Below are positions 7,186-24,766 of a stretch of DNA of 26,764 nt, in pieces. The position numbers and the translations under genes were made by a program. The DNA is taken from positions 84,391 to 111,154 of the IMG/VR virus record IMGVR_UViG_3300003309_000010; one strand, written 5' to 3'. The notes beneath the pieces were generated by a model, which ran no database searches, was not told where the DNA came from, and worked only from the letters and a program-made list of their open reading frames with translations. Source of the DNA: a virus. The stretch's first letter is position 1; every line of letters starts with the position of its first letter.

Positions 7186-7827
7186 ATGTCAAAACAAGAA
7201 AGACCTTTTACGGATAAGCATTGGGATCTAATGCTTACCGGTGCCTGTAATGGTACAGAGTGGGACCCGAAAGGCGGGTTCGGTCCGGGACAAAAGCCGG
7301 GCGAAATCAGCTGGAGTATGTTGTGCGACCACGAGCAGATGGCTGACGGCAAAAAGTCATGGTACCATTCGCTGAGTTACACCGACTTTTTACGCATCAT
7401 TGTCGGACTGGAACAACTGGCTAACGATTTGGACTCAGGTGAAGTCGTTCGTGAATTTAAATTCCAATACTACAAAGACGGCAAAATGAACATGTCCGGG
7501 GTGAGTCTGCTTATCGGACGCGCGGCTAATGGCTACATTTATCTGAGTTGGCGCAATAAGAAAATTCCAAAAGTGGGTTTCTGGTTCCGCAGTGCAGGTA
7601 CTCGCATGGTCGCTTGTAACGGCGACAGTCAAGATGAAGATCCGAAAATCGACACTCGCGATTGTGTTCTGGCTCGGACTGAACACTGGCGTGCGCGTTA
7701 TCAGGATTGGGCTTCGCAAACTATCGTCAAGGACGACTATACTGGGTCGTCTGGTGGAAGCGGCAGCGGTAGTCAACAATCGTCGAATAATAACGATGTT
7801 GATTTTGACGACGACATCCCATTCTAA
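7186..7827 (+). CDS. Single-stranded nucleic-acid-binding protein, ChmC/phiKZ gp67-like, with SSB-type acidic tail
   Basis: Position before the gp68-like gene; aromatic/beta-rich core; G/S/N-rich disordered linker; ends DFDDDIPF. Confidence 0.7.
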   Translation: MSKQERPFTDKHWDLMLTGACNGTEWDPKGGFGPGQKPGEISWSMLCDHEQMADGKKSWYHSLSYTDFLRIIVGLEQLANDLDSGEVVREFKFQYYKDGKMNMSGVSLLIGRAANGYIYLSWRNKKIPKVGFWFRSAGTRMVACNGDSQDEDPKIDTRDCVLARTEHWRARYQDWASQTIVKDDYTGSSGGSGSGSQQSSNNNDVDFDDDIPF

Positions 7828-7839
7828 TTTTACTATTCT

Positions 7840-7867
7840 TAAGGAGGTGCCTTCTGGCACCTCCTTA
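7840..7867 (+). terminator. Terminator-like hairpin after the ChmC-like gene
   Basis: TAAGGAGGTGCC-TTCT-GGCACCTCCTTA, 12-bp stem; the U-tract is weak. Confidence 0.6.
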
Positions 7868-7940
7868 CTGTTCCGTTGTTTACACACAGAGCACACTAGC
7901 GAAACAACTCGCGTCCGTTGTATGCGTGTCGTTGGATTCG

Positions 7941-7954
7941 ACGACGATATTATA
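7941..7954 (+). promoter_or_regulatory. Candidate promoter core ACGACGATATTATA
   Basis: An identical 14-mer occurs at 16710-16723, upstream of the nvRNAP beta gene. Confidence 0.55.
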
Positions 7955-7987
7955 CCCATGTATCAACCTAATAATGGGAACGCACTA

Positions 7988-8887
7988 ATGAAATTAGAAG
8001 CTACATTACGAGAATATAAGAAAAAGAGGACCCTATATACCATCGCACTTATCGGGAGAGAAAGGTACCCTATACGATGCGACCACCTGTATGGTCCCGG
8101 GTATATAGGGGACGTTGAAAAACATTTCAACATGGCTAATGTTGTACTGGAAATACTCAATGACGACAACCAGAAAGCCTTGTTCGATTGTTATGTGGAC
8201 ACGTTTGCTGAACTCAGGTACAGAAGACAAATATACCAAAATCATTTCAAGGCTTCAGAACGTTTTCTGGGGACGTTCCTCGCACTAATGCCGCCAGAAA
8301 GGGTGGAGCGTTTCTGCCAATCAAGGTATCCTGAAGATAAAGACGCTGGTCTCAAAACGTACATGCAGTTGTTGCTTCCTATCCTTATCGCTGTCGCTGC
8401 TGCGCAGGACGAAATCAGACCGTTAAAAGCTTGCAACCAATCTTGGGCGTTAGCCTACAACATGTTCGCTGACAAAGTCTCGCCATTGATGTCGGTCTTT
8501 CCTCGTTACGATGAACTACTCAATGGGATAGAATCTGCTATACAAATTGATAGTGATGCTTGTATCGGCGCAACCCTTTCTGGAGTACCATTGCACCACC
8601 AGTACATTCACTTCATGATGTTGATGTCGTTACAGGATTACGACGACTACATCGGACATGCTAAGACGTTCTACCAAGAATTGGAAAGACCGCTGCAAGG
8701 ACGGTCTCCTACCACTGCGTTTAGACATTCCGAACTCAGTAGACGCAGTAGTGGTAGAAGGGGAGGATCGTCTGATGATTCTGACGTGACCACAGCGGCA
8801 GTTGCTACCGGCACATGGTTATCCTCCGGTAATAACGATTCCAGCAGAAGTTCATCTGGGGGTAGCAGTAGCAATGATAATGATTAA
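7988..8887 (+). CDS. Truncated paralog of the gp68-like nvRNAP specificity subunit (299 aa)
   Basis: Collinear similarity to the next gene: MKLEATLRE/MKFETYYRE, FNMANVVLEILNDDNQKALFDCYV/FDPVNALLKNLTGEQQITLFGAYV, LMPPERVE/VLPPKGVE, QLLLPIL/KLLLPVL. GGGA lies upstream of ATG 7988. Confidence 0.75.
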   Translation: MKLEATLREYKKKRTLYTIALIGRERYPIRCDHLYGPGYIGDVEKHFNMANVVLEILNDDNQKALFDCYVDTFAELRYRRQIYQNHFKASERFLGTFLALMPPERVERFCQSRYPEDKDAGLKTYMQLLLPILIAVAAAQDEIRPLKACNQSWALAYNMFADKVSPLMSVFPRYDELLNGIESAIQIDSDACIGATLSGVPLHHQYIHFMMLMSLQDYDDYIGHAKTFYQELERPLQGRSPTTAFRHSELSRRSSGRRGGSSDDSDVTTAAVATGTWLSSGNNDSSRSSSGGSSSNDND

Positions 8888-8908: not shown

Positions 8909-10468
8909 ATGAAATTTGAAACCTATTATCGGGAAGACATTCCTGCTCGAGAAGGCGGCACAGTAGCCGGGGTAAAAATCGAACTGGATGGGGAGGTGTT
9001 ACATTTTTCCTTAGGGAAGGCGGGAAGGCGTAGCTACGTTGACCCAGACAGACTGTTCGATCCTGTCAATGCGTTACTCAAAAACCTAACTGGAGAACAG
9101 CAGATAACGCTGTTTGGTGCGTATGTGAGAGCCGATCAACTACATAACATCAATGTAGGTGTACAGGAAACCATTGCGGGTCTCATCGGTATCTGTGACG
9201 ATATCTTCGGCGTACTTCCCCCTAAAGGTGTAGAGGCGTGGGGTAAAACCAGTTATCGCGGATTTGAGGTGCCTCAGACTATCACGGAAGAACGCAAGCC
9301 TGGAAGTTACCCTGCTCATTCCAGTTACGATGAAATCGAGTACCGCGCACTATGCGCGTTATCGACAACATTCAAACTGCTGCTTCCGGTGCTGTTCCGG
9401 TTCATGGAAATCTTCGGCCAATTTTACGGAATCGCCATGAAAGAATTCAGGCTATTTCAGCTACTGGATGAAGATGAGCTTAGCGAAGCGGAAGCGTTTG
9501 TTAAACTGTTAAACTACACCACAGGTGTAGTATCGGATGCAACCGGTACCCCAAAAGTACCAATGGGGTTACTGACGGACGGGGTCGGCGCAGATGTCTA
9601 TCCCAGTTATGTCCTAAGCTCTAAACTCATCAGGGACTTGGCCCTGTCAGAAACGGATATCGGTGACAGAGGGGATACCATCAACAACGTTGCGGCGAAA
9701 ATAACGCGAGGTATCAACACGCACGCGGAACAAACCTCACGGCACTTCGACTATGCCGTGAAACCGCTACCTAAGGACAGACCGGGCAACGAAGACGGTA
9801 ACACGTCTATCCGGGAAGATCAAGGTGCCTCAGAACCCTATTCGGATTTGTACCGTGCAGGGTATAATATTGCGGCTTCGGATACCGAGTTGTACATTAA
9901 GTTAGGTATTGAGAAGGACATCTACTTCGTAATGATGGATCACATTGATAGACTTAAACCAACTATCAATGAAAACAAACTATCGGTCGCGATACTAACT
10001 GTAGCATCTCGTTTCGATCCGGAAGGCGTTGCGTTAGTAAATCGAGATAACTTTAAGAACTTGATGGCGTGTTCCGCAGCGTTGTTACACCAATATAAGC
10101 TGCATAATCTTGCCGGATTCATGATGGCAAAATCAGAACCATTGGGTGATGTTGTGTCAGCTGATTTTCTAACCACCCTTAATGCTAAGCCCGATCCTGA
10201 GTTGTTGGCTAAAGCTAAAGCGGTCTATGAAGATGCGCATGATGGGTACAATTACATTGAAAGATGGTTAGACGAGTTCGCTAAACGTATTGCGCAAAAC
10301 GGATGGGAACTGTGTCTACCAGATAGTCTACACCCCAACTACGGAGTAGGGAAACGCTACGTAGCGGGTAAAGATTTCAAAGACGAATTCTTAACATTAA
10401 CTGTGCTGTCTGACGCGGTTCAGGCTAAAGCAAAAACTAACATTGGAGTTCTACAAAAATGTCGTTAA
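8909..10468 (+). CDS. nvRNAP promoter-specificity (sigma-like) subunit, phiKZ gp68-like
   Basis: 519 aa; F..VN.LL..L..EQQ..LF..Y, Y...EY..L..LS...K..LP and EDGNTS..E motifs; canonical position. Confidence 0.78.
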   Translation: MKFETYYREDIPAREGGTVAGVKIELDGEVLHFSLGKAGRRSYVDPDRLFDPVNALLKNLTGEQQITLFGAYVRADQLHNINVGVQETIAGLIGICDDIFGVLPPKGVEAWGKTSYRGFEVPQTITEERKPGSYPAHSSYDEIEYRALCALSTTFKLLLPVLFRFMEIFGQFYGIAMKEFRLFQLLDEDELSEAEAFVKLLNYTTGVVSDATGTPKVPMGLLTDGVGADVYPSYVLSSKLIRDLALSETDIGDRGDTINNVAAKITRGINTHAEQTSRHFDYAVKPLPKDRPGNEDGNTSIREDQGASEPYSDLYRAGYNIAASDTELYIKLGIEKDIYFVMMDHIDRLKPTINENKLSVAILTVASRFDPEGVALVNRDNFKNLMACSAALLHQYKLHNLAGFMMAKSEPLGDVVSADFLTTLNAKPDPELLAKAKAVYEDAHDGYNYIERWLDEFAKRIAQNGWELCLPDSLHPNYGVGKRYVAGKDFKDEFLTLTVLSDAVQAKAKTNIGVLQKCR

Positions 10469-11937
10469 CTATGTTCACCCCCAGACAAGTCTCTATTGGG
10501 GCTATTTTAGGTTCGCAGACGCAATACTCTCGAACCTACTCGCTGAATGCGACTGGCAGTAATGTCAACGATTTGCTTAAGCATACTAGCAATGGGTTAG
10601 ATATCAACGTTAACACTATCGTTAACGGTTCAGGTATCATGGCTATGAGTTCAGATGCCCATGCAGAAATTGATATCGACGGTGGTTGGCAAGAACCTCG
10701 CCATGTATTCGAGCTGATACTGGAGAGCAACACAACAGGTTCATTGTTTATTCTGACCGGATTCACGTCCACAGATTACATGTTGAACGGTCGCATCAAC
10801 CCAAGAGCCGAGATTCATTTCAACACATATACCGAAATGGCTCCTCAACAACAACCAGATGGTTCAATTCAGTACATGGCGATGTCCACCGACAACATCA
10901 TGGCTGCTACAGACCTCAAAGGCAACTTGGAGCTAAACCGTTCGTTGTCGGTAACACCTACCCACGTACTCGCTGCCAGTTCCATGTACGGTATGGGTAA
11001 CGATAACATGACAACCATTGGTCAGCACGATACCTGCGCCAGTACCGCCCGGAACAATCAGGCTGCCGCGTGGTTGGGCCGGACAATCGACAGCTATGTT
11101 ACCCAAATGGACAGCATGGATATGTCTGGTCAAGGTGCGCACGGTTATATGCGTGACGGTGCTGCAAGTGTGGTTGCAAATCATGCATCTCACCATGCTG
11201 CCATAACCGAAACCGATTTGGCGCAAGCTGCGTTCATCGGTAGTTTGTTATCAAACTACCACGATATGTCGGCAGGGGCGCTGACATGGGGCTATCTGCT
11301 GGAAAAATTACCCCAGATTCAACATCTGATTCGGCCACCTTTACCAGCCGGGGGTGGTTCTCAGATTAAACTGGAAGAGTGGAATAACCGCGACACTGCT
11401 ATTATCATCTCAGAATACGCGAGCGCTATTCCAGCATTAATGTTAGAGTGTGGTGTGAAGTATTTCAACCATACGGTAACGAACGTTAATAGCGGGATGA
11501 ATCTGGATCCTTTTAATACAACAGCATGTAGCTATCGTGTCAATGGTGATGCCAATAATCCCGGTGTTTTGTTCTCTGTGGATAATGCTAAGGAAATGGA
11601 ACTGTTAAACATGTTGCAAGTGCGCATCACTAACATGATTTTCCCTCGCATTTCCCGTGGGCACAAAATGACCATTAGTTGTGAAGCAAGCAAGCTCACT
11701 AACATGACTATTGCTGTGGATTGGAATGGGTACACTTTCGCTCATACTGCCGCAACATTTGCTTCGTCTAAGTGGAGTGCGATGTCAGCGAACATCAACA
11801 GTTCGACCGACCTCGCCAACGGCGTTGGTAAATTGGGCAACGCATTAATCGAGGCTCGTCGTGACAATCCAACTGTCTCTGCACAAGCATCATCTTCTAA
11901 CACATCGACCAGCGTTGTAGATGCGTGGTCGAAGTAA
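10459..11937 (+). CDS. Putative phage nucleus protein-import factor PicA/Imp1 (phiKZ gp69-like)
   Basis: 492 aa, overlapping the gp68-like stop; Q..R.Y, I.GGW.E.R..F.L and LTGFT motifs; assigned mainly by synteny. Confidence 0.68.
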   Translation: MSLTMFTPRQVSIGAILGSQTQYSRTYSLNATGSNVNDLLKHTSNGLDINVNTIVNGSGIMAMSSDAHAEIDIDGGWQEPRHVFELILESNTTGSLFILTGFTSTDYMLNGRINPRAEIHFNTYTEMAPQQQPDGSIQYMAMSTDNIMAATDLKGNLELNRSLSVTPTHVLAASSMYGMGNDNMTTIGQHDTCASTARNNQAAAWLGRTIDSYVTQMDSMDMSGQGAHGYMRDGAASVVANHASHHAAITETDLAQAAFIGSLLSNYHDMSAGALTWGYLLEKLPQIQHLIRPPLPAGGGSQIKLEEWNNRDTAIIISEYASAIPALMLECGVKYFNHTVTNVNSGMNLDPFNTTACSYRVNGDANNPGVLFSVDNAKEMELLNMLQVRITNMIFPRISRGHKMTISCEASKLTNMTIAVDWNGYTFAHTAATFASSKWSAMSANINSSTDLANGVGKLGNALIEARRDNPTVSAQASSSNTSTSVVDAWSK

Positions 11938-11956: not shown

Positions 11957-13159
11957 ATGTCTAAACAAACACCCGTTAGAAAACAGACGTTAGAGTTTTT
12001 CAAATCTTTACTCAGCGATGCAGGTTGTGTATTCTCTGATGACGGTGTCATCAGTAGTACGTACCTTAAGTCTGGCACACTTGCAACCAAACAGGTTGAT
12101 ATTGAAGGTCTACCTGTTGTGTTGCCTACTCCGGAGAGGCTGAATGAACCCGAAGGGGAAACCATCGTTTTCGCACCGCTATGCGAAAACGTATTGCAAG
12201 GTGAGAGCGCCATTATCACTATGTTGAAGAAGGTGTTGAACCAAAGCATTAATCAACGCATTGGTATCTTGATGTCGAGCATCGCCACGTTGGCGATTGA
12301 TGAGAGATCTTACTCGCCAAAAATGCGAGCGCTTATCAACAAGAACCCGGACCTGCGTGATAAGACGATCAAACCTCTTAAGAAGTTAATCAGTCGTGTG
12401 GGACACCTACCTACTCAACATATTTTAGGCATCTACTTAACGTCTAAAAATGTTGAGTTCGAAGGACGCAAGGTTAAACGTAAAGCGTCGGTAAGTTCAA
12501 CTCTGTTGGATGAACTCTCTAACGGCAAAACGTGGGGCGTCGATATGCCGAAATGCGATGCCAGAGCTATCGCTACGCTGATTGAGTCAATCATGCCCGG
12601 GGTAAACGAAGACAACTATACCTATGGTAGCAACAGCACTGTGGCGCCAAATTTCCACGCAATTGCATCAGCCTTCTTAAACGTAAGTATGCGTCTTACT
12701 GAAGTCGAAACCATCGTCTATAAATACTTAGATAGCGAAGCGTTGGCAATCATTCCGGAACCCGCATCCAACTCATGGGCAGATGGACTGGAAGACCTGT
12801 ATGTTATGGAGAAGGCATTCCCTTCCTTAACCGGTAACAACGGCAACACTATCGTGGGCAAAACCGCTGCGGTGGATACGAGCAGAGTCAAGGTTGATGA
12901 AGGTAGCGGATTGTCGCCAACGTCATCTCCGCACGCGACTCAGTCTCCTCCGCCTCCTGCGACTGCGGAGACCAAACCTTCCGCGTGGGGAATGCCTCAT
13001 GCTAATACGCCGCCCGCAGCTCCACAACCCGGACAAAGGGGAGGGGACCTTTGGAACGCCCAACCCGCTTCGGGTTTTGCGCCACCTGCGGCTCCTGCTC
13101 AATCGCCAAGCAATTTTGCTGCTCCGGTTCAAAATGGCAATAAGTGGGGGATGGTATAA
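11957..13159 (+). CDS. Conserved phiKZ gp70-like protein with P/A/Q-rich disordered C-terminus
   Basis: G.PVVLPT.E.L, F.PL.EN...GES, Y.YGSNS.VAP.FHA pattern; AAGGA RBS; synteny. Confidence 0.68.
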   Translation: MSKQTPVRKQTLEFFKSLLSDAGCVFSDDGVISSTYLKSGTLATKQVDIEGLPVVLPTPERLNEPEGETIVFAPLCENVLQGESAIITMLKKVLNQSINQRIGILMSSIATLAIDERSYSPKMRALINKNPDLRDKTIKPLKKLISRVGHLPTQHILGIYLTSKNVEFEGRKVKRKASVSSTLLDELSNGKTWGVDMPKCDARAIATLIESIMPGVNEDNYTYGSNSTVAPNFHAIASAFLNVSMRLTEVETIVYKYLDSEALAIIPEPASNSWADGLEDLYVMEKAFPSLTGNNGNTIVGKTAAVDTSRVKVDEGSGLSPTSSPHATQSPPPPATAETKPSAWGMPHANTPPAAPQPGQRGGDLWNAQPASGFAPPAAPAQSPSNFAAPVQNGNKWGMV

Positions 13160-13167
13160 CACAACTT

Positions 13168-13195
13168 GGGGTAGTTTCGGCTACCCCTCTTTTTT
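13168..13195 (+). terminator. Intrinsic terminator
   Basis: GGGGTAGT-TTCG-GCTACCCC followed by TCTTTTTT; UUCG tetraloop. Confidence 0.85.
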
Positions 13196-13218
13196 CAGTA
13201 CAAAGAAGGGGTTTGGGT

Positions 13219-13581
13219 ATGCTCGTTGTATTAAACTCTCGGGATTTGGGTTTATCCGAAAAGACCATAACGACAGTATCGGACGCATTATTTGATTATT
13301 GGTTTTCATCCATTGTGATCGGACAATCGACAATGATGTCTTTGAATGATTACGAGGAAGCCATAATATCAATGTATCTTTCTGGGGACACATTCGCCAC
13401 GATAGACACATTGGCTAAATCTACCGTCTCCGCTATTCTTAAACGAAACATTCCGCCTATGTATTATCAGTGGGTAGGTCGACGCAATGGTACTATATGC
13501 GTTGAACTAATTGGTCAAACACGTGGTGTAATGGCTATAGTAGACCAAGATTGCGGAGGGACGCTACAGTGGGTACACTAA
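13219..13581 (+). CDS. Paralog array member 1 (hypothetical, about 120 aa)
   Basis: Start moved to ATG 13219, downstream of the terminator; motif DYWFSSIVIG. Confidence 0.7.
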   Translation: MLVVLNSRDLGLSEKTITTVSDALFDYWFSSIVIGQSTMMSLNDYEEAIISMYLSGDTFATIDTLAKSTVSAILKRNIPPMYYQWVGRRNGTICVELIGQTRGVMAIVDQDCGGTLQWVH

Positions 13582-13988
13582 TAACAAGGGTAGATAAATC
13601 AGCAGTGTATCATATTCTCGAAGGTTGGGGCGTGGGAGAGTCAGATTATGTTACGGACGACGATAGAGATCCTACTGAACAAATCTGGCCTAACGATTTA
13701 GATGAGATACCAGACAGTGTTGTTCAAGCGTTATTCTGTAAGCTAATGTACGGGATACCGACCGATACACCTTTACATGACATGTTCGAACTTGTGGAGA
13801 AATCGGTCGTTAGCGAGAGTAGCTCGGCAGGGAACAATGTTATTGAGACACCCTACAGATTGTTCATTGCGTATACGCTATTTCCGGCAATACACGATGT
13901 GGTGTGCGGGCTCTTTCCAGATTATTGTCATGAAGAGATCGCGTCAGACGAACATGCTTATATCATAAAGCTATCCAAAGCGGGGTGA
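13569..13988 (+). CDS. Paralog array member 2 (hypothetical)
   Basis: GGAGGG RBS before GTG 13569; motifs ALFCKLMYG, TLFPAIHD, EEIASDEHAYIIKL. Confidence 0.72.
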   Translation: MGTLITRVDKSAVYHILEGWGVGESDYVTDDDRDPTEQIWPNDLDEIPDSVVQALFCKLMYGIPTDTPLHDMFELVEKSVVSESSSAGNNVIETPYRLFIAYTLFPAIHDVVCGLFPDYCHEEIASDEHAYIIKLSKAG

Positions 13989-13993
13989 CAAGC

Positions 13994-14323
13994 ATGCGTC
14001 TTTATCTGACGAAACACGATATAGACAAACACATGCACTACAAGTTTGTGAGTTCGTATGATTTCAAGGATGATGGCGTGTATAAAGAAGTGGGGTACCG
14101 GTTGGTTGGTAGACGCACTGTCAGTAGGTATAGACCAAGAACCGATCTATATGATAGGGACCTAGATGCGATGATAGATCCTTGTATTTCTTCTGAAAGA
14201 TACATAGAGACTACGCATGTGATTCTTGCTATATACTTAGCGCTGGAATGTCGAAATATCAACAAACTAATAATAAAGGCCGTCGCCACACCATCGGGCG
14301 TAGCGTTGACTTTGGCTAATTAG
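13994..14323 (+). CDS. Paralog array member 3 (hypothetical)
   Basis: GGGGTG RBS; motifs MRLYLTKHDI, GYRLVG, VATPSGVALTL. Confidence 0.72.
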   Translation: MRLYLTKHDIDKHMHYKFVSSYDFKDDGVYKEVGYRLVGRRTVSRYRPRTDLYDRDLDAMIDPCISSERYIETTHVILAIYLALECRNINKLIIKAVATPSGVALTLAN

Positions 14324-14333
14324 GGGAGGGGGA

Positions 14334-14708
14334 ATGAAAACTAGAATTACAAACGACGACTTTAGACGCGTATCACGGCCCATCGATCTTGTATGTCACG
14401 ATTTTACTAAATCGGAAATAACCTCAGGACTGAACCAAATATTGTCGGGTTTCGATACTCGAGAGGCCGCTTTACAAAAACCCTCAACCATGTTGTCTGA
14501 AATGAGCACGTCAATAGACCGCGGTTGGGGGATGTCGGTACATAACATCGTTGTTGTGCGTGACATTGCAACTAAAATAATAACACTCGTCAATCGTAGT
14601 ATAGGTCCTGTCATTATACACGAGATAGAATGTCACGAGGAGTACGTCGTGGTCCATTACACGGCGGATGTTGGCGAAGCAGCATTGGACTACAGACGCG
14701 TTAGCTAA
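14334..14708 (+). CDS. Paralog array member 4 (hypothetical)
   Basis: GGAGG RBS; motifs LNQILSG, IHEIECHEEYVVVHY. Confidence 0.75.
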   Translation: MKTRITNDDFRRVSRPIDLVCHDFTKSEITSGLNQILSGFDTREAALQKPSTMLSEMSTSIDRGWGMSVHNIVVVRDIATKIITLVNRSIGPVIIHEIECHEEYVVVHYTADVGEAALDYRRVS

Positions 14709-14717
14709 GGAGGTGTA

Positions 14718-15095
14718 ATGAGAACATTGATTAGTGCGCAGGAAATAGACAAGGTATTGATGGAGTGTGTGGATAGTAACGTGTTCGGTGTAAGCTACAA
14801 ACCGAGCCCTAAGTTAGAAAGCACACTGTCGTCACTATTGTTAGGTGTCACCACCTGCCAAAAAGAACCGGTATACGCGGATACAAACGTCGACGATGAA
14901 TATGGTGGTCAGGCGGCTGCCTATGATCATATTAATCAGCTAGTAGACCTCGCGTTGGCAAATTGCGTATTAGAAATTTTAAACCGCAGTAGGGATTCTG
15001 GAGTCATTGAAGGATTAGAATGCAGAGAAGTCGGCATTGCTGTATTAATCCATAACACTGGCGATAGACCCCCGCCTTATTATAAGGAGAATTAG
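14718..15095 (+). CDS. Paralog array member 5 (hypothetical)
   Basis: AAGGAGGT RBS; motifs LSSLLLG, IEGLECREVGIAVLI. Confidence 0.78.
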   Translation: MRTLISAQEIDKVLMECVDSNVFGVSYKPSPKLESTLSSLLLGVTTCQKEPVYADTNVDDEYGGQAAAYDHINQLVDLALANCVLEILNRSRDSGVIEGLECREVGIAVLIHNTGDRPPPYYKEN

Positions 15096-15096
15096 C

Positions 15097-15531
15097 GTGG
15101 TAACTTCACCTTCACGCTCAACAATTTCGCGTCCTCAACGAAATAAATCAGTGAGCGTTTGTATGCCTTATGTTCAGCTGTATCAGGGTATATATCCTCT
15201 AGCTTGCAATTCAGAGGATACATCACAAACACCTAAGGAGGTGTCAACAGGTCAGTTGGTAATCGACAATCAGTTGACATCGATAGCGTTTGCAAATGTC
15301 ATGTTGGGTACACACAGCGAGGTACAGTATGATATTAAACTCGCTGCCAGAGGCGGGAGAAAAATCATAGAAGGTAACTTGGGCTTCTACTACGATTATC
15401 TGCTTCCTGAGGTAAACCGTACAGTAAGTCGTTCTAACTTGTCAGGTACCTACCTTGGGGTAACAACCAACGGCGTTAGCCTTATCATTACTATGGACTG
15501 CGGTTTATATGTCCCCGCTGTTTCAATTTAG
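15097..15531 (+). CDS. Paralog array member 6 (hypothetical)
   Basis: AAGGAG RBS before GTG; motifs AFANVMLG, DYLLPEVNR. Confidence 0.72.
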   Translation: MVTSPSRSTISRPQRNKSVSVCMPYVQLYQGIYPLACNSEDTSQTPKEVSTGQLVIDNQLTSIAFANVMLGTHSEVQYDIKLAARGGRKIIEGNLGFYYDYLLPEVNRTVSRSNLSGTYLGVTTNGVSLIITMDCGLYVPAVSI

Positions 15532-15546
15532 TACGCGGAGGAGTCT

Positions 15547-15945
15547 ATGCATATGTTGGTCTTGGACAGCGATATGGAGGAATCCAGTTACGTCTATCGT
15601 TGTTTAGATTTTGACCCTCAGTCAAAAGACCGTGTCAATCGCGAGTGTTTGGCTGTATACTTTGAGAAATATTTGTTGGGTAGGGACGCTCTGTTGCTAA
15701 CCAAAGACGACATAATAGACAACTTATACGATACCGCGATGTACCCAGATATGGCCGATGATGAATCTTACATTGTGGATTATTTGTTGGTCGCAATTGT
15801 CTCGGCAGTTAATGAGAGAGCGCGCTTGCACTTGGTGTACGAAACTATCGAAGTTGTACCGTTTGGATACGTGTTAGGTTTCTCTGTTAAAGCTGGAGGG
15901 GTAGTACGTGAGGGTGTTGGTAACGCACAAGCGGTTGCTGGATAA
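15547..15945 (+). CDS. Paralog array member 7 (hypothetical)
   Basis: GGAGGAG RBS; motifs YFEKYLLG, DYLLVAIV, YETIEVVPFGYVLGF. Confidence 0.78.
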   Translation: MHMLVLDSDMEESSYVYRCLDFDPQSKDRVNRECLAVYFEKYLLGRDALLLTKDDIIDNLYDTAMYPDMADDESYIVDYLLVAIVSAVNERARLHLVYETIEVVPFGYVLGFSVKAGGVVREGVGNAQAVAG

Positions 15946-16270
15946 TTGCTATTCAGCGGCTGTTTACCGAGATTTAGATTTCAATGATTTATCCGATGAT
16001 GACGTTAAGTACGCTTTTGAACAAAATGTTAAAGGTGAATGTTTTGTCGATTTAGGTTCAGAATACTACAGTGATAGACTCATGGATACGCCTCTGGGTA
16101 TTAGGATGATGGAAGACCACGATAAACTAGGTTTCATTGTAGCCGACCTCGTCCCCGCCATACTCGACGAATTAGGCGCGGGACGTCAAAATACCGCATT
16201 AGCGCAAACGGTGTTTGAATCTATTGAGTGTCATCCTTTTGGATATAGCGTTATTTTAGAGCGTAATTAG
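15908..16270 (+). CDS. Paralog array member 8 (hypothetical)
   Basis: GGAGGG RBS before GTG; motifs AFEQNVKG, DLVPAILD, FESIECHPFGYSVIL. Confidence 0.78.
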   Translation: MRVLVTHKRLLDNCYSAAVYRDLDFNDLSDDDVKYAFEQNVKGECFVDLGSEYYSDRLMDTPLGIRMMEDHDKLGFIVADLVPAILDELGAGRQNTALAQTVFESIECHPFGYSVILERN

Positions 16271-16298
16271 GTGGGGACGCGTCCCCACCTAATTTTTT
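16265..16298 (+). terminator. Terminator; perfect 30-bp palindrome plus T-tract
   Basis: AATTAGGTGGGGACG|CGTCCCCACCTAATT followed by TTTT, between convergent genes. Confidence 0.85.
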
Positions 16299-16327
16299 GC
16301 GTGATGACGACGTAGAGTTTCTATGTC

Positions 16328-16660
16328 TCAGAACAACGTTTGGTTACTGGAATGTTTGACCGTTTTCACTAATCGTTCCACCGCGTCGACATTCGGTACC
16401 AGTATACCGACCAATTCGCTCACATCGGTTGTGGACGTGTGTTTATTTATCAACATAGTGGTGTTCCAAAATTTCGGGTCGATTCCAAGCGAATCATATA
16501 ACCCTAAAATGTTGTAACGGAACCGAGTGGACGCGACGTTGGTGACTGGCGTTATAGAAGACGTTTTTCTCAGGATAGGTAAATGATCGTAGATCGCTTG
16601 CCTAGCTAACGGCGTGTCGTAACGACCATCGTTGCGCTTTATTCTATCTTTTAATGCCAT
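16328..16660 (-). CDS. Small conserved protein, possibly LysM/T4 gp53-like baseplate wedge fold
   Basis: AAGGA RBS; LGLYDSLGI.PKFW...LIN......LVP resembles the gp53/tail-X pattern. Confidence 0.55.
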   Translation of the reverse strand: MALKDRIKRNDGRYDTPLARQAIYDHLPILRKTSSITPVTNVASTRFRYNILGLYDSLGIDPKFWNTTMLINKHTSTTDVSELVGILVPNVDAVERLVKTVKHSSNQTLF

Positions 16661-16733: not shown

Positions 16734-16758
16734 TAAAGCAATAATAAATGAGGTGATT

Positions 16759-18882
16759 ATGAGTTGGGCTGGTTATACCGATGAATACTACCAAAAAATC
16801 GTTGAACAGCGATTTAAAGGAGAACGCATCGATAGAGTCACTACAGGGGGGAACATGAATCAGTTCATTGGTAGCGTATCGGGTGGGCGCATACCAATGA
16901 TTAACAACCAATTAGGTCAATATCTACCACTTATCAATCCCGAACCTCGACAACAAATGTCGGGTTTGGAACAGGACTACGCCTACGGGTTGGCCGATGT
17001 CAGATTCGAGGGCGTCCCGGTGCAGTCCGTTTCAGGCGACATGGAGTACCCAGATCATGAGGTTGTTCTTCACTCCATTATCCCGCACTATCGTCACGAA
17101 CCGGGGGTAGTGGATGTAGTTAACGGGGAATCAGTAGTTTACAGAACTCATGATGGCTTGTTAGCCATTGTGGAGATTCCCAATTTTTACACTAGTCATT
17201 CTTGGTCTTGCGCAACACTACACAAAACGGATGCGTTTAAAACAGCAACGCCGGGTGATATATTCGGAAGCAGCGATGTTATTGCGCAAACAAACACACG
17301 AACCGCAGAAGGGAACCTAGCATTCGGAAGAGAACTTAACTGGTCTTATCTGGGCTGGTTTAGTAGCAACGAGGATGGTTCGGCCGTCAGCAAGGAAGCG
17401 CTGCCGCTGTTAGAATCGGAGAAATACGAAGCCACGGATATCTTCCTGCAAGCCGATGATATTCTTCTTCCGATACACGGAGATGGGGTGGATTGGCAAG
17501 CGCTGCTGTCTCCTGGTAATATTGTTCCTGAGAATGGGATGATTGCTGCAACAAGAAAGATGCGTAAAAGTTTCAGTCCGGTGAATATGATGAAGCGGAA
17601 TCTGCGGATACCTCAGCATCCGTTCGATTTAAAATATCGCCATGCTAAGGGGTCAGAGATTGTGGAGGTGGAAGTACTCCGCGATAACCGAGGGGACTTT
17701 AAACACATGCCTAAGGGTCAGGTTGCGTATCTCGACCGGTTGGCAGATAATTGTCTGGAGCGTCATAGGAAGATATTGGAAATCGATGCGTTGGAGCGGC
17801 GTAATCGTGGACCTCGATACGACAAACATCCTAGTTGGCACATTGCAGTAGTGCAAGCGGAACAGCAACTATACGCTGCTGGGGAATTGCCAGAACATTT
17901 GGTTAAGGAAGCTAAAATCATTCCTTCTGCCAGACCAACAATACAGGATAAGACGTACACGTATTACATCCGTATTGTTAGTAAGGGACGTGTCAAACCG
18001 ACCTTAGGACACAAGCTGACAGGTATGCATGGTGAGAAAACGGTGATTTGCGCAACTCCGGATCCTGAGGAAATGCCGCTGGATAAATGGGGGCGTAGGG
18101 GTCATATCAATGTTAACCCTGCGGGTGTATCTAACCGTAATAACCCCTCTCAGTTAATCGAGGGTTTTCGGTCAGATGCTTGTTACCACACAAGACGCAA
18201 ACTGTTAACCATCTCCAGCAGAGAAGAGCAGTTAGCATTCTTATTGGAATTCTACCGGTTGGCAAGTTTAGAGTCGTATCGCAGTATAAGTCTAAAGAGT
18301 TTGGAAGAACAGTACCAACACCTTGACCATGTCTTGGCCAATCGAATAGATTTAGTCGATGAGCCGGGTGATCCGGGAACAACGATTGCTATTGTTGATA
18401 TGCTCGAAGATACGCCATACTACCCACCTAGGGATCACGTCACGTATCGAGATCACGACGGTACGATTGTCACATCTCATGCGTTGGTGAGGGTATCTAA
18501 CAAGTACACTTTCACGTTGGATAAGATCGGCAAATACAGTAGTGCTTGTAACATCGCGTTGCGCCAGTACATGGGCTTCACTGCGAAGTTATCTGCGAAA
18601 GATAAAGCGACTACTCACATTTCGACGTCGGCCTCTAGACTGATAGATAACACTACCACGCGAGCATTGTTCGGCAACTTACCCAGCGAAGCTGTTCGTT
18701 ATATGCTGCATAGTGGTAACTCTATCAAGTTCAACAAGAATCAGCTGACGAAATTCTTGCAGGGCGAACTCATGTTGGAACCGGACTTCGAAACGCAATA
18801 TGTAAGTCGCGGGTTGGAGCTATTTACAGCGTTGGTGCGTACGTTTGGACACGATCTTGATACTGACTCTAGAGGGGAATGA
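16759..18882 (+). CDS. nvRNAP beta-like subunit (phiKZ gp71-73-like), uninterrupted
   Basis: FGRELN, NEDG, GHKLTGMHGEKTVI (GDK..GRHGNKG) and NPAGVSNRNNPSQLIE (NPLGVPSRMN.GQ) motifs. Confidence 0.92.
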   Translation: MSWAGYTDEYYQKIVEQRFKGERIDRVTTGGNMNQFIGSVSGGRIPMINNQLGQYLPLINPEPRQQMSGLEQDYAYGLADVRFEGVPVQSVSGDMEYPDHEVVLHSIIPHYRHEPGVVDVVNGESVVYRTHDGLLAIVEIPNFYTSHSWSCATLHKTDAFKTATPGDIFGSSDVIAQTNTRTAEGNLAFGRELNWSYLGWFSSNEDGSAVSKEALPLLESEKYEATDIFLQADDILLPIHGDGVDWQALLSPGNIVPENGMIAATRKMRKSFSPVNMMKRNLRIPQHPFDLKYRHAKGSEIVEVEVLRDNRGDFKHMPKGQVAYLDRLADNCLERHRKILEIDALERRNRGPRYDKHPSWHIAVVQAEQQLYAAGELPEHLVKEAKIIPSARPTIQDKTYTYYIRIVSKGRVKPTLGHKLTGMHGEKTVICATPDPEEMPLDKWGRRGHINVNPAGVSNRNNPSQLIEGFRSDACYHTRRKLLTISSREEQLAFLLEFYRLASLESYRSISLKSLEEQYQHLDHVLANRIDLVDEPGDPGTTIAIVDMLEDTPYYPPRDHVTYRDHDGTIVTSHALVRVSNKYTFTLDKIGKYSSACNIALRQYMGFTAKLSAKDKATTHISTSASRLIDNTTTRALFGNLPSEAVRYMLHSGNSIKFNKNQLTKFLQGELMLEPDFETQYVSRGLELFTALVRTFGHDLDTDSRGE

Positions 18883-20909
18883 GTGTGGATAAAATAGATA
18901 GTTTTTGGCTACTCTCTTTAACAGAAGAGAACTATTTTAAGGAAATCGACACTCGGGTGTCTGACAAGGCGGTGATAGAATGCCAAGATGGTATCGTTGA
19001 GATAAGCAAGGAACTCTTACAATGGAGCTGGCCATACCTCATCTTTAATAAGGAATACAATGTCCCGCTCACGATGGGTCACTTCTGCGACACCGACGCA
19101 GTAACGACCAAACATCTACATAAGGACATGTTGAAGTTTGCTACGAAATACGCCCATCGGTATCTCGAACATGCGGTTCCGTATAATGAGATATCTCGGT
19201 TAGGTCCTGATGTCACTCGAATGCAAATGAATAGCGCGATTGGATACTTATCTCGTTACGCGATATCACTGGATGCGGAAGATTACCATCAGGTGCTGAA
19301 ACATCCGGTCATCGCAAAAATACTGCGGGAGCTTAAACAGACTATCGACAACGCGCGGACAAATTCTGAGCGAGGTAAGGCCTTTACTAAAGCTTACGGC
19401 GAAATGCAAGAATACATGATGGGCGACGCGTTTAGAGATATGCCTCTTAACGGATTAGTTCATTTGGTATTGAGCGGTACCTGTAAAATGGTACAGCTGA
19501 ACCAAGGCATCATCGGGGTGGGTTTTGGTAGCGACATCGACTCGACGTTCTTCCAAGAACCAATACTTGACTCGTACGCAACTGGCCTGACTAGCGTGTT
19601 CTCATTCATGGCAAATTGTCGTTCCGGTGCAAAAGCGTTAATGTACTCTCACGACCCAATGCGGAAAACGGAATATCTGCATCGCCTTGTCCAAATGATA
19701 TCTGCTTCATTTAACAAGGTGTACTTGGGTGACTGCGGGAGCACTGTAACGTATCCGGTTAGGTTGACCGAGAAAAGGAAGAAAGGTGTTATCGGTAAGT
19801 ATTTCATTGACCCTAAACGCGGGTTAACGGAACTTACCGAAGATAACGTTAACCATTACGTCGGCCAAACTCTGCAAGTGAGGCACCCCGCAGGATGTAA
19901 AGTTCCTGACCCGACCGGGACGTGTTCAGTATGTGGTGGAGCGGTAACCAACTCGTTGGGCAGGGAAGCCAAAGTCGGCTGGGCGATGTCAACTAGGAAT
20001 TTCTCGGCGACGTCGCAAGCTGTATTGAGTGTTAAACATTCTGACTTAACTTCAGTGGGACTGGCGACGCCGTTAAACCCCGCGTTGGAGAAATACCTTG
20101 TGTCAAGCGAAGATGGCGAGGGTATACATTTCGACAATAATCGAGAGTATCAAGTTGGTATATTTGTACCCAATAAACCCAAAGGTCGAGAACTGTATGG
20201 GACCAAGCTTCACGAATTGACACATTTGAGTTCGCAAGAACTAGAAGATGCCAGCCCGTGGAGTTATTCAGGTTTCTATTCGGCGCAGATATCTCGAACA
20301 GACGGTTTAATGGAAGCGGTTGAGCTACCTATTTTAGCTAAACGTGAGGAGGTCTGTTTATCCAAAGAGGTACTTAAATACATCCATGAGAACCCCGGTG
20401 TTATGCGAATAACGACGCACGCCAGAGGACGTAAAATGTACACAATCGATTTGTCTATGTTTAACAACAACGTTCCCGTGTTTACCACCAAGTTCTCCCA
20501 CGCGGATACGCTTAAAATGTTTGAGGTCGTAGACAGCTTCGTAAGGAGCAGTAAACGTACTAATAGTAACGAACCGGCGCCCGGTAAAGTGTTAAAGGAT
20601 TTTCACAACTTCGGGGATGCGTGTTTGTATATGTTCGACCTTCTTAATGATAAGTTAGGTATCAACCTCAGCGTAATCGAATTGTCACTGTGGCCGTTCA
20701 CGGTAACAGACCCTGAAAACGGAGACTACACTCCTGTTAAAGGTACAAACAATTGTCAATTCGAATCAATAGACGAACTCTTCAACCAACGTAGTTTATC
20801 TGCTAAATTGGGGAGTGAGGAGATTGATAAGGTGCTCACTGTTCCTGCGTTCAGCGCAAGGAAGAAACGAGTGCCCTCTGCGTATGACGCGCTATTCCGC
20901 AAACGGTAA
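18879..20909 (+). CDS. nvRNAP beta'-like C-terminal subunit (phiKZ gp74-like)
   Basis: Bridge-helix-like RSGAKAL...TEYLHR; second Zn site DCGS...C...CSVCG; trigger-loop SQAVLSVKH; ATGA overlap with the previous gene. Confidence 0.9.
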   Translation: MSVDKIDSFWLLSLTEENYFKEIDTRVSDKAVIECQDGIVEISKELLQWSWPYLIFNKEYNVPLTMGHFCDTDAVTTKHLHKDMLKFATKYAHRYLEHAVPYNEISRLGPDVTRMQMNSAIGYLSRYAISLDAEDYHQVLKHPVIAKILRELKQTIDNARTNSERGKAFTKAYGEMQEYMMGDAFRDMPLNGLVHLVLSGTCKMVQLNQGIIGVGFGSDIDSTFFQEPILDSYATGLTSVFSFMANCRSGAKALMYSHDPMRKTEYLHRLVQMISASFNKVYLGDCGSTVTYPVRLTEKRKKGVIGKYFIDPKRGLTELTEDNVNHYVGQTLQVRHPAGCKVPDPTGTCSVCGGAVTNSLGREAKVGWAMSTRNFSATSQAVLSVKHSDLTSVGLATPLNPALEKYLVSSEDGEGIHFDNNREYQVGIFVPNKPKGRELYGTKLHELTHLSSQELEDASPWSYSGFYSAQISRTDGLMEAVELPILAKREEVCLSKEVLKYIHENPGVMRITTHARGRKMYTIDLSMFNNNVPVFTTKFSHADTLKMFEVVDSFVRSSKRTNSNEPAPGKVLKDFHNFGDACLYMFDLLNDKLGINLSVIELSLWPFTVTDPENGDYTPVKGTNNCQFESIDELFNQRSLSAKLGSEEIDKVLTVPAFSARKKRVPSAYDALFRKR

Positions 20910-22636: not shown

Positions 22637-24766
22637 TTAGCTGGACAACCAAGCTTCTACGCCAACCACTTTCACCATGTATACTAACGGCATGTTAGTA
22701 ACGAAGTTGAAGAATGGTTGAATTTGCAGACGACGTTTCAACTCGCCACTTTCTTGAATACCAACATCGAACACTAGCGGTGGCGTTTCGATACAATAGC
22801 CGAAACCAAAGGCTTTGTCGGACTCACCGCTGGCGGATACCACATTAGGGATAATCGTAATCAGGTTATCCATAACGTCTAAGTCAGACACAACAACTTC
22901 TGGTTTTGCGAATACGTTGGGGTCCAAGTTACCCAAGAATTCTTCGTCACCGTACGTTTTCGCATAACGTGAGATTGTGTTGCCTGCCACAACGGTAGGT
23001 TTGATTTTGGCTGTTCCGCCAGCGTACTCTTTAAGCGGAGTAGTCAGACCGGATTCGGTTACCATCATCGACAGATTTTCAGACAACATACCGGATAAGA
23101 ATGAAGCCAATTTCGCTGCGCGCTCTTCGGTTTCAAACTCTTTAACGACATCACCTGCGTCAACTTCACCGCCGTCTTTACACCAAGGCTTAACCAGATA
23201 GAACACGCCTGCGTACTGAGACTGTTGGTAATCCGGGATATTTTTACCGTCAGTGCCGAACTTTTCACACATTTCGTTGATAGTTCTCAGATAGTGCGTG
23301 ATTGCCGCGTCTTCTTTAGCCAAGTTGCGGGCAGTGTTCATCGCTGCCAGCTCTAAATCGACATTGTCAGCATCGATGGCTTCTTCAGCAGTAATGGGTT
23401 GCTGAGCTAACAGACTGTAAGTTTTGGTGATGGAATTCGCACGAACACGCAAACCTGTCATACGTTGAGTTTTGCTTGACAACGACATATCGAAAACAGG
23501 AGCGCGGTATTGCGGATTAACGTTACCCACTTCAGTAGAAATAGTGTTGTCAGCTACAAAATTGTCGCCGTCTTTTGCCTGATAAACACCAATCAGTTTA
23601 ACATCATGCTGTTGTTTTGACAACGTGCCTTTATGCAGGTCGATGGACATGTTCAGCGTAATGGCCAACTTGATGTAACTGTAACCGGCAGTATGAAGTG
23701 CCAGCAGTTCTGGAATCGCTTGTGCTTTGGCGGTGGTCAGGTCAATCAACCATTCGACACCATCCATTGCCAGATTGCGTTTGCTATTGGAAGAATTGGC
23801 TTCCAATTGGCTGAAGTAAGCATTACTCATATCTGAAGTGCGGAACTCCATGATATGGTTGCCCGCACCAAATCCGATGTACATCGATTTCAGCACCACA
23901 CCGTCATCAATGCGATCGTTGATGGTTAGCGTGTTGCTACTGTTTTGACCAGGCGCACGGGAAAGTTGAAGCAGGTTAATTTCGCCGTCGAATTGACCGT
24001 TGATAAGACCCGTTTCGAAGGTAGATCCGTCAGTCGCGGTGATCTTTTTGTATGGGTACATTGCTTCTGGCAGAAGTTGATTTTCATTACTACCATCAAC
24101 AACCCGAGGAACCATTTTGTTATCATTACGATTCAATAGCCCGGACACACGACCAGCATCAGCCAAATGACGCTCTTTCCAGTCGGTGATATCGCCCCCA
24201 GTACCGGTATGATACTGCTGGCCCAAAAATTCGAATCTGGGTAACGTAATGCGGGTGGATAAGAAATCGGCGTTAAGTTGCATGGTTGGATAAACCACTT
24301 CGCCTGCTGAACGTCTTGCGTTAGCGCCAGCAATCGCCAGAGCAATGGCATAGTCACGAACACCGTCGCGTCTATCTCTAGTGAAGGATTCAGTGCCAAC
24401 GTTGTCCAAGTTGAGATGTTTACCCAACTTCTTCATCTTGGTGTTAAGTTCACCAACGTTGGAGTACAACATTGCTGTACGCGCAGCGGCTTCTTTCTGA
24501 GGTTCAGTTAGTACTTTTGGAGCTCCGTCGTGCTCGACGCCAACTGTGGTCAGCAGTTTAGTAATGTTTTTGAACTGAGCCTTTACCTTGTCTACCGATT
24601 CAGATTGTGAGTTTGGTGCAGATGCACTCTCTAAGCCTAAATAGGCAAGTCCAGCATCTTCGGAATAGATAGATTCTTCGTTAGCTTCCAGAACATCAGA
24701 GAGATCTTTCACTCTGATACCTAAGGAGCTACCCGCAGATATGAGCGAAGTGTTAAATAACGCCAT
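22637..24766 (-). CDS. Major capsid protein precursor (phiKZ gp120-like)
   Basis: 709 aa; G-x-E protease-type sites (GLE46, GVE78, GTE126); GE..YPT, EINLLQLS and LQIQPFF...TNMP motifs; DnaB/gp119/MCP synteny; AAGGA RBS. Confidence 0.82.
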   Translation of the reverse strand: MALFNTSLISAGSSLGIRVKDLSDVLEANEESIYSEDAGLAYLGLESASAPNSQSESVDKVKAQFKNITKLLTTVGVEHDGAPKVLTEPQKEAAARTAMLYSNVGELNTKMKKLGKHLNLDNVGTESFTRDRRDGVRDYAIALAIAGANARRSAGEVVYPTMQLNADFLSTRITLPRFEFLGQQYHTGTGGDITDWKERHLADAGRVSGLLNRNDNKMVPRVVDGSNENQLLPEAMYPYKKITATDGSTFETGLINGQFDGEINLLQLSRAPGQNSSNTLTINDRIDDGVVLKSMYIGFGAGNHIMEFRTSDMSNAYFSQLEANSSNSKRNLAMDGVEWLIDLTTAKAQAIPELLALHTAGYSYIKLAITLNMSIDLHKGTLSKQQHDVKLIGVYQAKDGDNFVADNTISTEVGNVNPQYRAPVFDMSLSSKTQRMTGLRVRANSITKTYSLLAQQPITAEEAIDADNVDLELAAMNTARNLAKEDAAITHYLRTINEMCEKFGTDGKNIPDYQQSQYAGVFYLVKPWCKDGGEVDAGDVVKEFETEERAAKLASFLSGMLSENLSMMVTESGLTTPLKEYAGGTAKIKPTVVAGNTISRYAKTYGDEEFLGNLDPNVFAKPEVVVSDLDVMDNLITIIPNVVSASGESDKAFGFGYCIETPPLVFDVGIQESGELKRRLQIQPFFNFVTNMPLVYMVKVVGVEAWLSS

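Follow-up and report, generated by a model that had tools for sequence, protein, structure and literature searches.

Eight small, highly diverged genes between gp70 and the polymerase beta gene of a phage of Chimalliviridae type: likely a further array with the fold of phiKZ gp43-gp48

What are the eight small genes that stand in a row between the gp70 homolog and the beta gene of non-virion RNA polymerase (nvRNAP) in a phage of Chimalliviridae type, and what might they do? They lie in a window of 26,764 nucleotides (nt; positions 84,391 to 111,154 of virus record IMGVR_UViG_3300003309_000010). The window is the final 26.8 kb of a 111,154-base contig (C1), whose protein clusters are also represented on a 211,799-base contig. 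The single run containing this DNA carries the label coral metagenome; no RNA data set is listed as containing it, which has no bearing on expression. The genes, called g1 to g8 here, are consecutive plus-strand open reading frames (ORFs) of 109-144 amino acids (aa), and an earlier reading of the DNA (the original prediction) took them to be an old gene-family expansion beside the PicA/gp70-like and nvRNAP genes. Our analysis supports a model wherein seven of the eight are very diverged copies of one gene, with g6 a weak, probable member. Structure predictions suggest that in this array the fold of phiKZ gp43-gp48 has likely been expanded a second time, in a clade-specific manner.

Direct comparison of the copies sets apart only two of the 28 pairs, g7-g8 (z 11.8) and g4-g5 (z 5.6). 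Identity between copies is 8-34%, with g7-g8 the highest at 34%, and no similarity among the eight genes was found at the DNA level. HHalign joins g7+g8 to g3+g4+g5 with a score of 27 (E 5e-4, 84 columns), compared with 19.4 for the best reversed profile. Copies were also left out and scored with an end-to-end profile method, averaged over three aligners at the second of two settings tried, with 40 of 68 real small proteins as controls (maximum z 1.27). The averaged z is 5.1 for g1, 4.0 for g2, 5.5 for g3 and 2.3 for g6. When both members of a close pair were left out together, it is 2.6 for g4 and 4.8 for g5, and 3.4 for g8 and 0.9 for g7. These values shift across six gap settings, wherein g1 and g5 are stable, g2 (-0.4 to 7.4) and g3 (1.5 to 6.4) are mostly high, and g6 (-0.8 to 3.1) is weak.

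HMMER leave-one-out searches recover g4, g5 and g7, reach g8 at E 0.09 only, and miss g1, g2, g3 and g6. Tests on the set as a whole do not single it out. The alignment score of the whole set does not clearly exceed the scores of shuffled sets (30) or random sets (30), the one invariant column, a Gly, lacks significance by itself, and a strand-propensity test fails to separate the family (6/8) from controls (50/72). The ordered motifs on which the family was proposed (a strand then a helix, a helix ending in Gly, an amphipathic helix and a terminal hairpin) are all present in the translations as quoted.

A search of 1.84 billion representative sequences turned up two relatives outside this phage, P0008 (39% identical) and P0009 (33%), each an ortholog of g8. 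Conservation in related phages therefore holds for g8 at least. A third sequence from the profile search, the 1732-aa repeat protein P0010, was dropped as a compositional match. A tblastn search of g7 against 50,697 phage records returned nothing at E 10, and word-based searches of proteins brought up none but those of the phage itself. Scans of viral contigs gave Halocynthia phage JM-2012 or nothing, and scans of metagenomes and genomes gave nothing; these scans used few exact patterns and do not show absence.

JM-2012 is the closest named phage (gp70 37% identical), and it carries two genes for hypothetical proteins, TSMG0154 and TSMG0155, at the same place, between gp70 and the small minus-strand gene. 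This pair differs from the present array in having two copies rather than eight, and is 7-17% identical to the eight proteins. Most named phages have little or nothing at this site. In the eight phages where it was viewed with annotation, the gp70-beta interval has no gene in PhiPA3, pVp-JHP1101, FLC9 and Eowyn, one short gene in Moabite and phiKZ, and two in PhiEaH1 and JM-2012. The small genes at the site in PhiEaH1 and Moabite look unrelated. For the ten phages common to both tblastn lists, the gp70 and beta matches lie 1.8-2.1 kb apart in eight, 2.5 kb apart in RP12 and 2.6 kb apart in JM-2012; the distance in the present phage is 4.8 kb.

Structure prediction suggests a link between the two phages. 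An AlphaFold model of g7, built with five aligned paralogs and with the JM-2012 proteins absent from the alignment, has a predicted local distance difference test (pLDDT) score of 65.9 and a predicted template modelling (pTM) score of 0.63. It consists of a strand (residues 2-6), three helices (32-42, 53-61 and 73-91) and two further strands (96-104 and 107-114). A model of g2 (twelve sequences) has the same order of elements and is poor (pTM 0.37). When the g7 model was searched with Foldseek against BFVD, the first match was I1VXJ6 (148 aa, E 4.9e-3, probability 1.00, template modelling (TM) score 0.56) and the second was I1VXJ7 (140 aa, E 0.056, probability 0.98, TM 0.55). The search listed these two without names, and we identify them as TSMG0154 and TSMG0155 by length and accession order; as an anchor for this order, TSMG0108 of JM-2012 corresponds to I1VXF0 (94 aa, rank 29). 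An old expansion beside the PicA/gp70 and nvRNAP genes is supported for seven of the eight genes, with two genes of the same predicted fold at this site in JM-2012. In other structure searches, g7 found nothing in the PDB below E 1.2 with Foldseek, and ESM searches (models with pLDDT 0.4) gave TM values below 0.5 by query.

Further down, the g7 matches point to another locus. Each of the 20 named nucleus-forming phages fetched has 5-11 small genes (picked by position and strand) upstream of gp49, an SH3 gene, and in phiKZ they are gp43-gp48. Most of these proteins, judged by eye, have a hydrophobic strand at the start and a hairpin at the end. The phiKZ array is uncharacterised apart from two members: gp47 is Imp2, which is required to import Nlp1 and is itself imported, and gp48 is Imp4, which is required for import of TopA. 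The PhiPA3 homolog of Imp2 is gp044 (all from the accessible part of bioRxiv 10.1101/2024.03.27.586873). The accessible part of 10.1101/2025.11.23.690004 has imp2 and imp4 as genes without disruptive transposon insertions. The present phage has four small genes here (C1:34990-36782, or L013:4091-5883), behind a tubulin-like gene and upstream of a gp49 homolog (C1:36754-37167, E 1.8e-9) that lies about 60 kb from the eight-gene array. This gp49-side array is shorter than that of any of the 20 named phages.

Among the best 50 rows of the g7 search, 15 of the 26 that are named come from nucleus-forming phages, compared with 4/35 for the poor g2 model. The comparison with gp49-side arrays covers 14 of these 15 rows, RSL2 being left out. 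One row is named PhiPA3 044, nine match a gp49-array gene of the same phage in length, two do so via a close relative, and two have no such length match (Desertfox, 136 aa, and Goslar, 124 aa). The PS119XW gene with the length of the rank 4 match is an Imp2 ortholog (E 1e-17 to gp47). The gp49-array rows have E values of 0.12-1 and TM values of 0.30-0.40.

A sequence profile of the family was also compared with the gp49-side arrays. The third gene of the phage's own gp49-side array (C1:36139-36405) is the top of 318 sequences compared with the family profile in both gap settings (z 5.5 and 5.0), with Imp4 of phiKZ in second place among the 117 array proteins (z 3.8 and 2.8). With soft gaps, the gp49 array taken together scores above controls (p 2e-5; p 0.017 versus reversed sequences). 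The helix-ending Gly, a motif defined after the fact, occurs in 12/12 members and 47/117 gp49-array proteins. Pooled alignments of 118 array proteins are noisy, with g7 at 10.0 bits and second of 312 for one aligner and at background for the other.

From the models, we consider it probable that g7, the JM-2012 pair and the gp49-side array have one fold. The eight genes would then likely carry the same domain as phiKZ gp43-gp48 in an additional array at a different locus, which was observed only here (eight copies) and in JM-2012 (two). Like the eight, Imp2 and Imp4 are small proteins of nucleus-forming phages encoded in a tandem array, with an apparent strand-helices-hairpin order in common. 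They differ in having no significant sequence match to the eight, weak fold scores and a locus upstream of gp49 rather than behind imp1-gp70. The original prediction recognised the expansion and missed that the family is probably a second array of a fold found upstream of gp49 in the 20 named phages.

Two other features of the gp49-side locus were observed. Proteins of the gp43 type (phiKZ gp43 is L012:8342-9415) seem to contain the small domain in duplicate, and their C-terminal half matches the single-domain gene immediately upstream in PhiPA3, 201phi2-1, Phabio, Psa21 and Noxifer. Also, a UUCG hairpin before the four-gene array of the present phage resembles the hairpin preceding g1.

Three functions had been suggested for the eight proteins: a hetero-oligomeric ring, cargo adaptors for nuclear import, and anti-defence or host-binding factors. 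Import adaptors obtain the only specific support, a weak one, from the predicted fold shared with Imp2 orthologs, and a fixed ring is disfavoured. We favour import adaptors ahead of host binders, modulators of ribosomes or RNA, polymerase accessories, a ring and unrelated orphans, and we hold this preference tentatively. The tandem expansion of one small strand-helices-hairpin domain, likely that of phiKZ gp43-gp48, would give proteins that are each a single small binding domain with its own phage or host protein partner. Because identity between copies is 8-34% while g8 keeps 33-39% with its orthologs, a separate partner for each copy seems plausible. The proteins would act as non-enzymatic, cargo-specific adaptors that deliver their partners to Imp1/PicA, whose gene lies two genes upstream, so that these are taken into the phage nucleus. 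A job in nuclear import is suggested by the role of Imp2 and Imp4 in phiKZ and by gene position. Adaptors in this sense (Imp2, Imp4 and Imp5) are needed for the import of a given cargo, with import dependent on Imp1. A broader proposal is more doubtful. In it, the specificity of import would come from an importin-like gene family that has a uL22-like fold, can expand and includes Imp2 and Imp4, with a second set of eight placed behind imp1 in this phage and the canonical array shrunk to four.

Several results weigh against a role as import adaptors. Only two genes of the phiKZ array have a known import role, a shared fold does not show function, and a terminator-like hairpin parts the array from the imp1-gp70 genes. 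By sequence, Imp2 and Imp4 were found in Pseudomonas phages only, according to the accessible part of bioRxiv 10.1101/2024.03.27.586873. Regarding structure, the other four g7 models have pLDDT values of 40-51, no g7 match in BFVD reaches E 0.001, and the Imp2 orthologs stand at ranks 4, 8, 11 and 22 with E 0.12-0.60 and TM 0.30-0.40; the search with the poor g2 model did not find the family. Regarding sequence, HMMER and HHalign leave the eight at background against the gp49-array families, which are mostly at background with one another too. HHalign of g7+g8 against the Imp2 group scores 14.5 (E 0.15), below reversed controls. Imp2 reaches z values of only 1.1 and 0.1 with the family profile, and those of Imp4 can be matched by individual reversed or control sequences (a reversed one reaches 3.7). 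Under hard gaps the gp49 array is not above controls (p 0.76 and 0.96; second run, 0.62 and 0.98).

The strongest competitor keeps the fold and changes the partner. The eight could be diversified binders of host proteins, involved in takeover or counter-defence, for which the gp70-beta interval is merely a tolerant landing site. The proteins are small, mostly acidic, fast-evolving and variable in copy number, and the array is its own hairpin-bounded unit. PhiEaH1 and Moabite have small genes of unrelated appearance at this site, and the contig has other paralog arrays. However, the only members of the likely fold family whose role has been tested are import factors, and we regard host binding as unlikely.

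A structural comparison raises another candidate. When the g7 model was aligned to 48,161 solved chains with VIA-align, the top 22 rows were all ribosome large-subunit chains, covering model residues 1-119 (Z 4.8-6.2, root-mean-square deviation mostly 3.2-4.1 over 79-95 residues, 5-15% identity). One row is labelled L22P and the other 21 are presumably uL22 as well. Thus, the proteins might be uL22-like domains that act on ribosomes, ribosome assembly or RNA. However, no Z reaches 8, the caution level below which a match may be merely a common arrangement, and this idea gains nothing from the Foldseek search of the PDB or from Pfam. Moreover, uL22 is basic with a long hairpin, whereas most of the eight are acidic and the modelled hairpin is short. 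We read the likeness, over about 80-90 residues, as a description of topology and not as homology, and a ribosomal role is improbable.

We give an equally low rating to the idea that the eight assist the nvRNAP, or the replication machinery in the nucleus, as accessory factors, with Imp2-type proteins being cargo chaperones rather than importers. The array does lie among nvRNAP genes, and the other array is beside gp49 and, in most phages, DNA polymerase. In addition, Imp2 is itself imported (bioRxiv 10.1101/2024.03.27.586873, accessible part), and an nvRNAP-specific factor, Imp7, exists (10.64898/2026.09.21.753271, accessible part). However, most named phages run the same nvRNAP without such genes at the site.

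A single hetero-oligomeric ring or shell part of fixed composition would suit one tightly coupled operon of similarly sized paralogs, but is still less probable because copy number is 0, 2 or 8 at the site (and 4-11 in the gp49-side array); no interface residue is invariant except one Gly. Finally, it is very improbable that only g7-g8 and g4-g5 are paralogous, the others being unrelated alpha/beta orphans and the gp49-array link chance, as 26 of 28 pairwise scores near background and weak set-level and strand-propensity tests would allow, given left-out z values above all 40 controls for g1-g6 and g8 and best structural matches to same-site genes in the nearest named phage.

Table 1. The eight-gene array and its neighbours (window coordinates; averaged z refers to left-out profile scores)
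Feature	Position	Strand	Basis
Imp1/PicA (phiKZ gp69) homolog	10459..11937	+	phrog_3141; BLASTP E 5e-45 to JM-2012 TSMG0152
gp70 homolog, left flank	11957..13159	+	phrog_3520; tblastn to PhiPA3 064 and JM-2012 TSMG0153, 37%
Terminator-like hairpin with T run, separating gp70 from g1	13168..13195	+	hairpin with T tail 13168-13187
g1, 120 aa, family member	13219..13581	+	left-out profile z 4.3-7.0 in 6/6 settings
g2, 139 aa, probable member	13569..13988	+	averaged z 4.0; low-confidence model, same strand/helix order
g3, 109 aa, family member	13994..14323	+	averaged z 5.5; hidden Markov model of g4, g5, g7 and g8, E 0.008
g4, 124 aa, family member	14334..14708	+	pair with g5, z 5.6; leave-one-out E 6.7e-5
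g5, 125 aa, family member	14718..15095	+	leave-one-out E 5e-4; z 4.8 with g4 left out too
g6, 144 aa, weakest candidate member	15097..15531	+	motifs present; averaged z 2.3
g7, 132 aa, family member, modelled	15547..15945	+	34% identical to g8, z 11.8
g8, 120 aa, family member	15908..16270	+	two orthologs elsewhere, P0008 and P0009
13-pair terminator-like hairpin and T run ending the array	16265..16300	+	hairpin with T tail 16265-16294
Small conserved gene, right flank	16328..16660	-	phrog_3455; gene of same size, strand and position in other phages viewed
nvRNAP beta and beta' genes	16753..20909	+	phrog_3295, phrog_3015

The organisation described in the original prediction is present in the DNA (Table 1). 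Gaps between successive ORFs are -13, 5, 10, 9, 1, 15 and -38 nt, and the duplexes that the eight ORFs can form with the anti-Shine-Dalgarno sequence range from -7.4 to -13.3 kcal/mol, consistent with strong ribosome-binding sites and overlapping or abutting ends. Hairpins with T tails were likewise found at both proposed terminators, the first of them 31 bases from the start of g1. The region has four terminator-like sites in total, compared with 3.9 expected from shuffles, and therefore only position argues for these two hairpins. Sigma-70-like promoters are not in excess (9 found, 11.5 expected). The G+C content of the array (0.436; third positions 0.38-0.47) is near that of the flanking core (0.453-0.461; 0.34-0.51), and therefore no recent foreign origin is apparent. 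Six of the eight proteins have an isoelectric point (pI) below 6, and g3 alone is clearly basic (pI 8.9). None matches a PHROG or Pfam family at E 0.05 and no catalytic motif was seen. A HECT domain, suggested for g8 by an ESM feature score of 0.95 (model pLDDT 0.42), was rejected, with no Pfam match in any member and none for g5 by features.

Other sequence elements were noted near the array and along the contig. The first hairpin's right arm, with its T run (13180-13212), can instead pair with the ribosome-binding site of g1; this alternative pairing (13180-13235, -14.4 kcal/mol) may be chance. The motif GATATATTA / CGATATTA recurs on the plus strand, mostly shortly upstream of genes, and is a candidate phage promoter element. 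It occurs in the window at 1988, 7945 and 16714 and elsewhere on C1 at 5634, 25928, 45640, 50072, 55778, 64041, 64108 and 76197, and is absent upstream of g1.

The neighbouring genes establish the kind of phage. By PHROG and Pfam matches, the core order is a beta' N-terminal gene, gp59/Imp3 (E 8.5e-5 to phiKZ gp59), SbcD, gp66-gp68, gp69/Imp1/PicA and gp70, followed by the eight ORFs, the small minus-strand gene, beta, beta', a helicase and the major capsid gene (Pfam PhiKZ_MCP, E 6e-82). With a syntenic gp55-gp75 block, Imp1/PicA, nvRNAP subunits and a phiKZ-type capsid, the phage is of Chimalliviridae type by its core block. A candidate for gp54 (chimallin), by place, is C1:82537-84450, which matches TSMG0133 of JM-2012 (E 2e-38). 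The JM-2012 counterpart of the Imp1 gene, TSMG0152, carries an annotation as similar to PhiPA3 ORF63, and the PhiPA3 homolog of Imp1 is gp63 (bioRxiv 10.1101/2024.03.27.586873, accessible part).

Several neighbouring loci also deserve mention. The major capsid gene (22637-24766, minus strand) lies head-to-head behind the gp75 helicase gene, nearly as in JM-2012 (TSMG0164), whereas phiKZ differs. A long ORF between gp67 and gp68 (7592-8887, plus strand) has no PHROG or Pfam match, and this interval is a second variable one in the clade because JM-2012 has eight other genes there. Elsewhere on C1, small and very hydrophobic ORFs are clustered at 24511-32817, and BLAST gave no match to them in the fetched stretches of JM-2012. 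Three adjoining look-alike genes of 247-272 aa with a common GPLG motif form an apparent paralog group at 60194-62661, and helical proteins in a row at 73878-80140 are paralogous in appearance.

The literature searched, which left most subscription papers outside, yielded no account of the gp43-gp48 block as a family of paralogs and none of an array at the gp70 site. The accessible parts of PMC7824862, PMC13282480 and 10.64898/2026.09.21.753271 contain no description of either, and the terms looked up do not occur in 10.64898/2026.09.30.755723. The new elements are the second locus, its eight-fold expansion next to imp1, and the shortness of the canonical array in this same genome.

These observations bear on how cargo is selected for the phage nucleus, a process in which Imp1 serves as conserved gatekeeper; reports of the adaptors Imp2 and Imp4 come from Pseudomonas phages only. 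If a family of adaptors is present in all such phages and has been expanded beside imp1 in this one, adaptor repertoires would be a variable layer of import, testable gene by gene, and would offer a handle for steering chosen proteins into phage nuclei. Should the broader, importin-like proposal be true, the eight would be a ready panel for mapping the pairing of adaptors to cargo. Even with a different role, the genes are a large undescribed paralog set in the core region of nucleus-forming phages.

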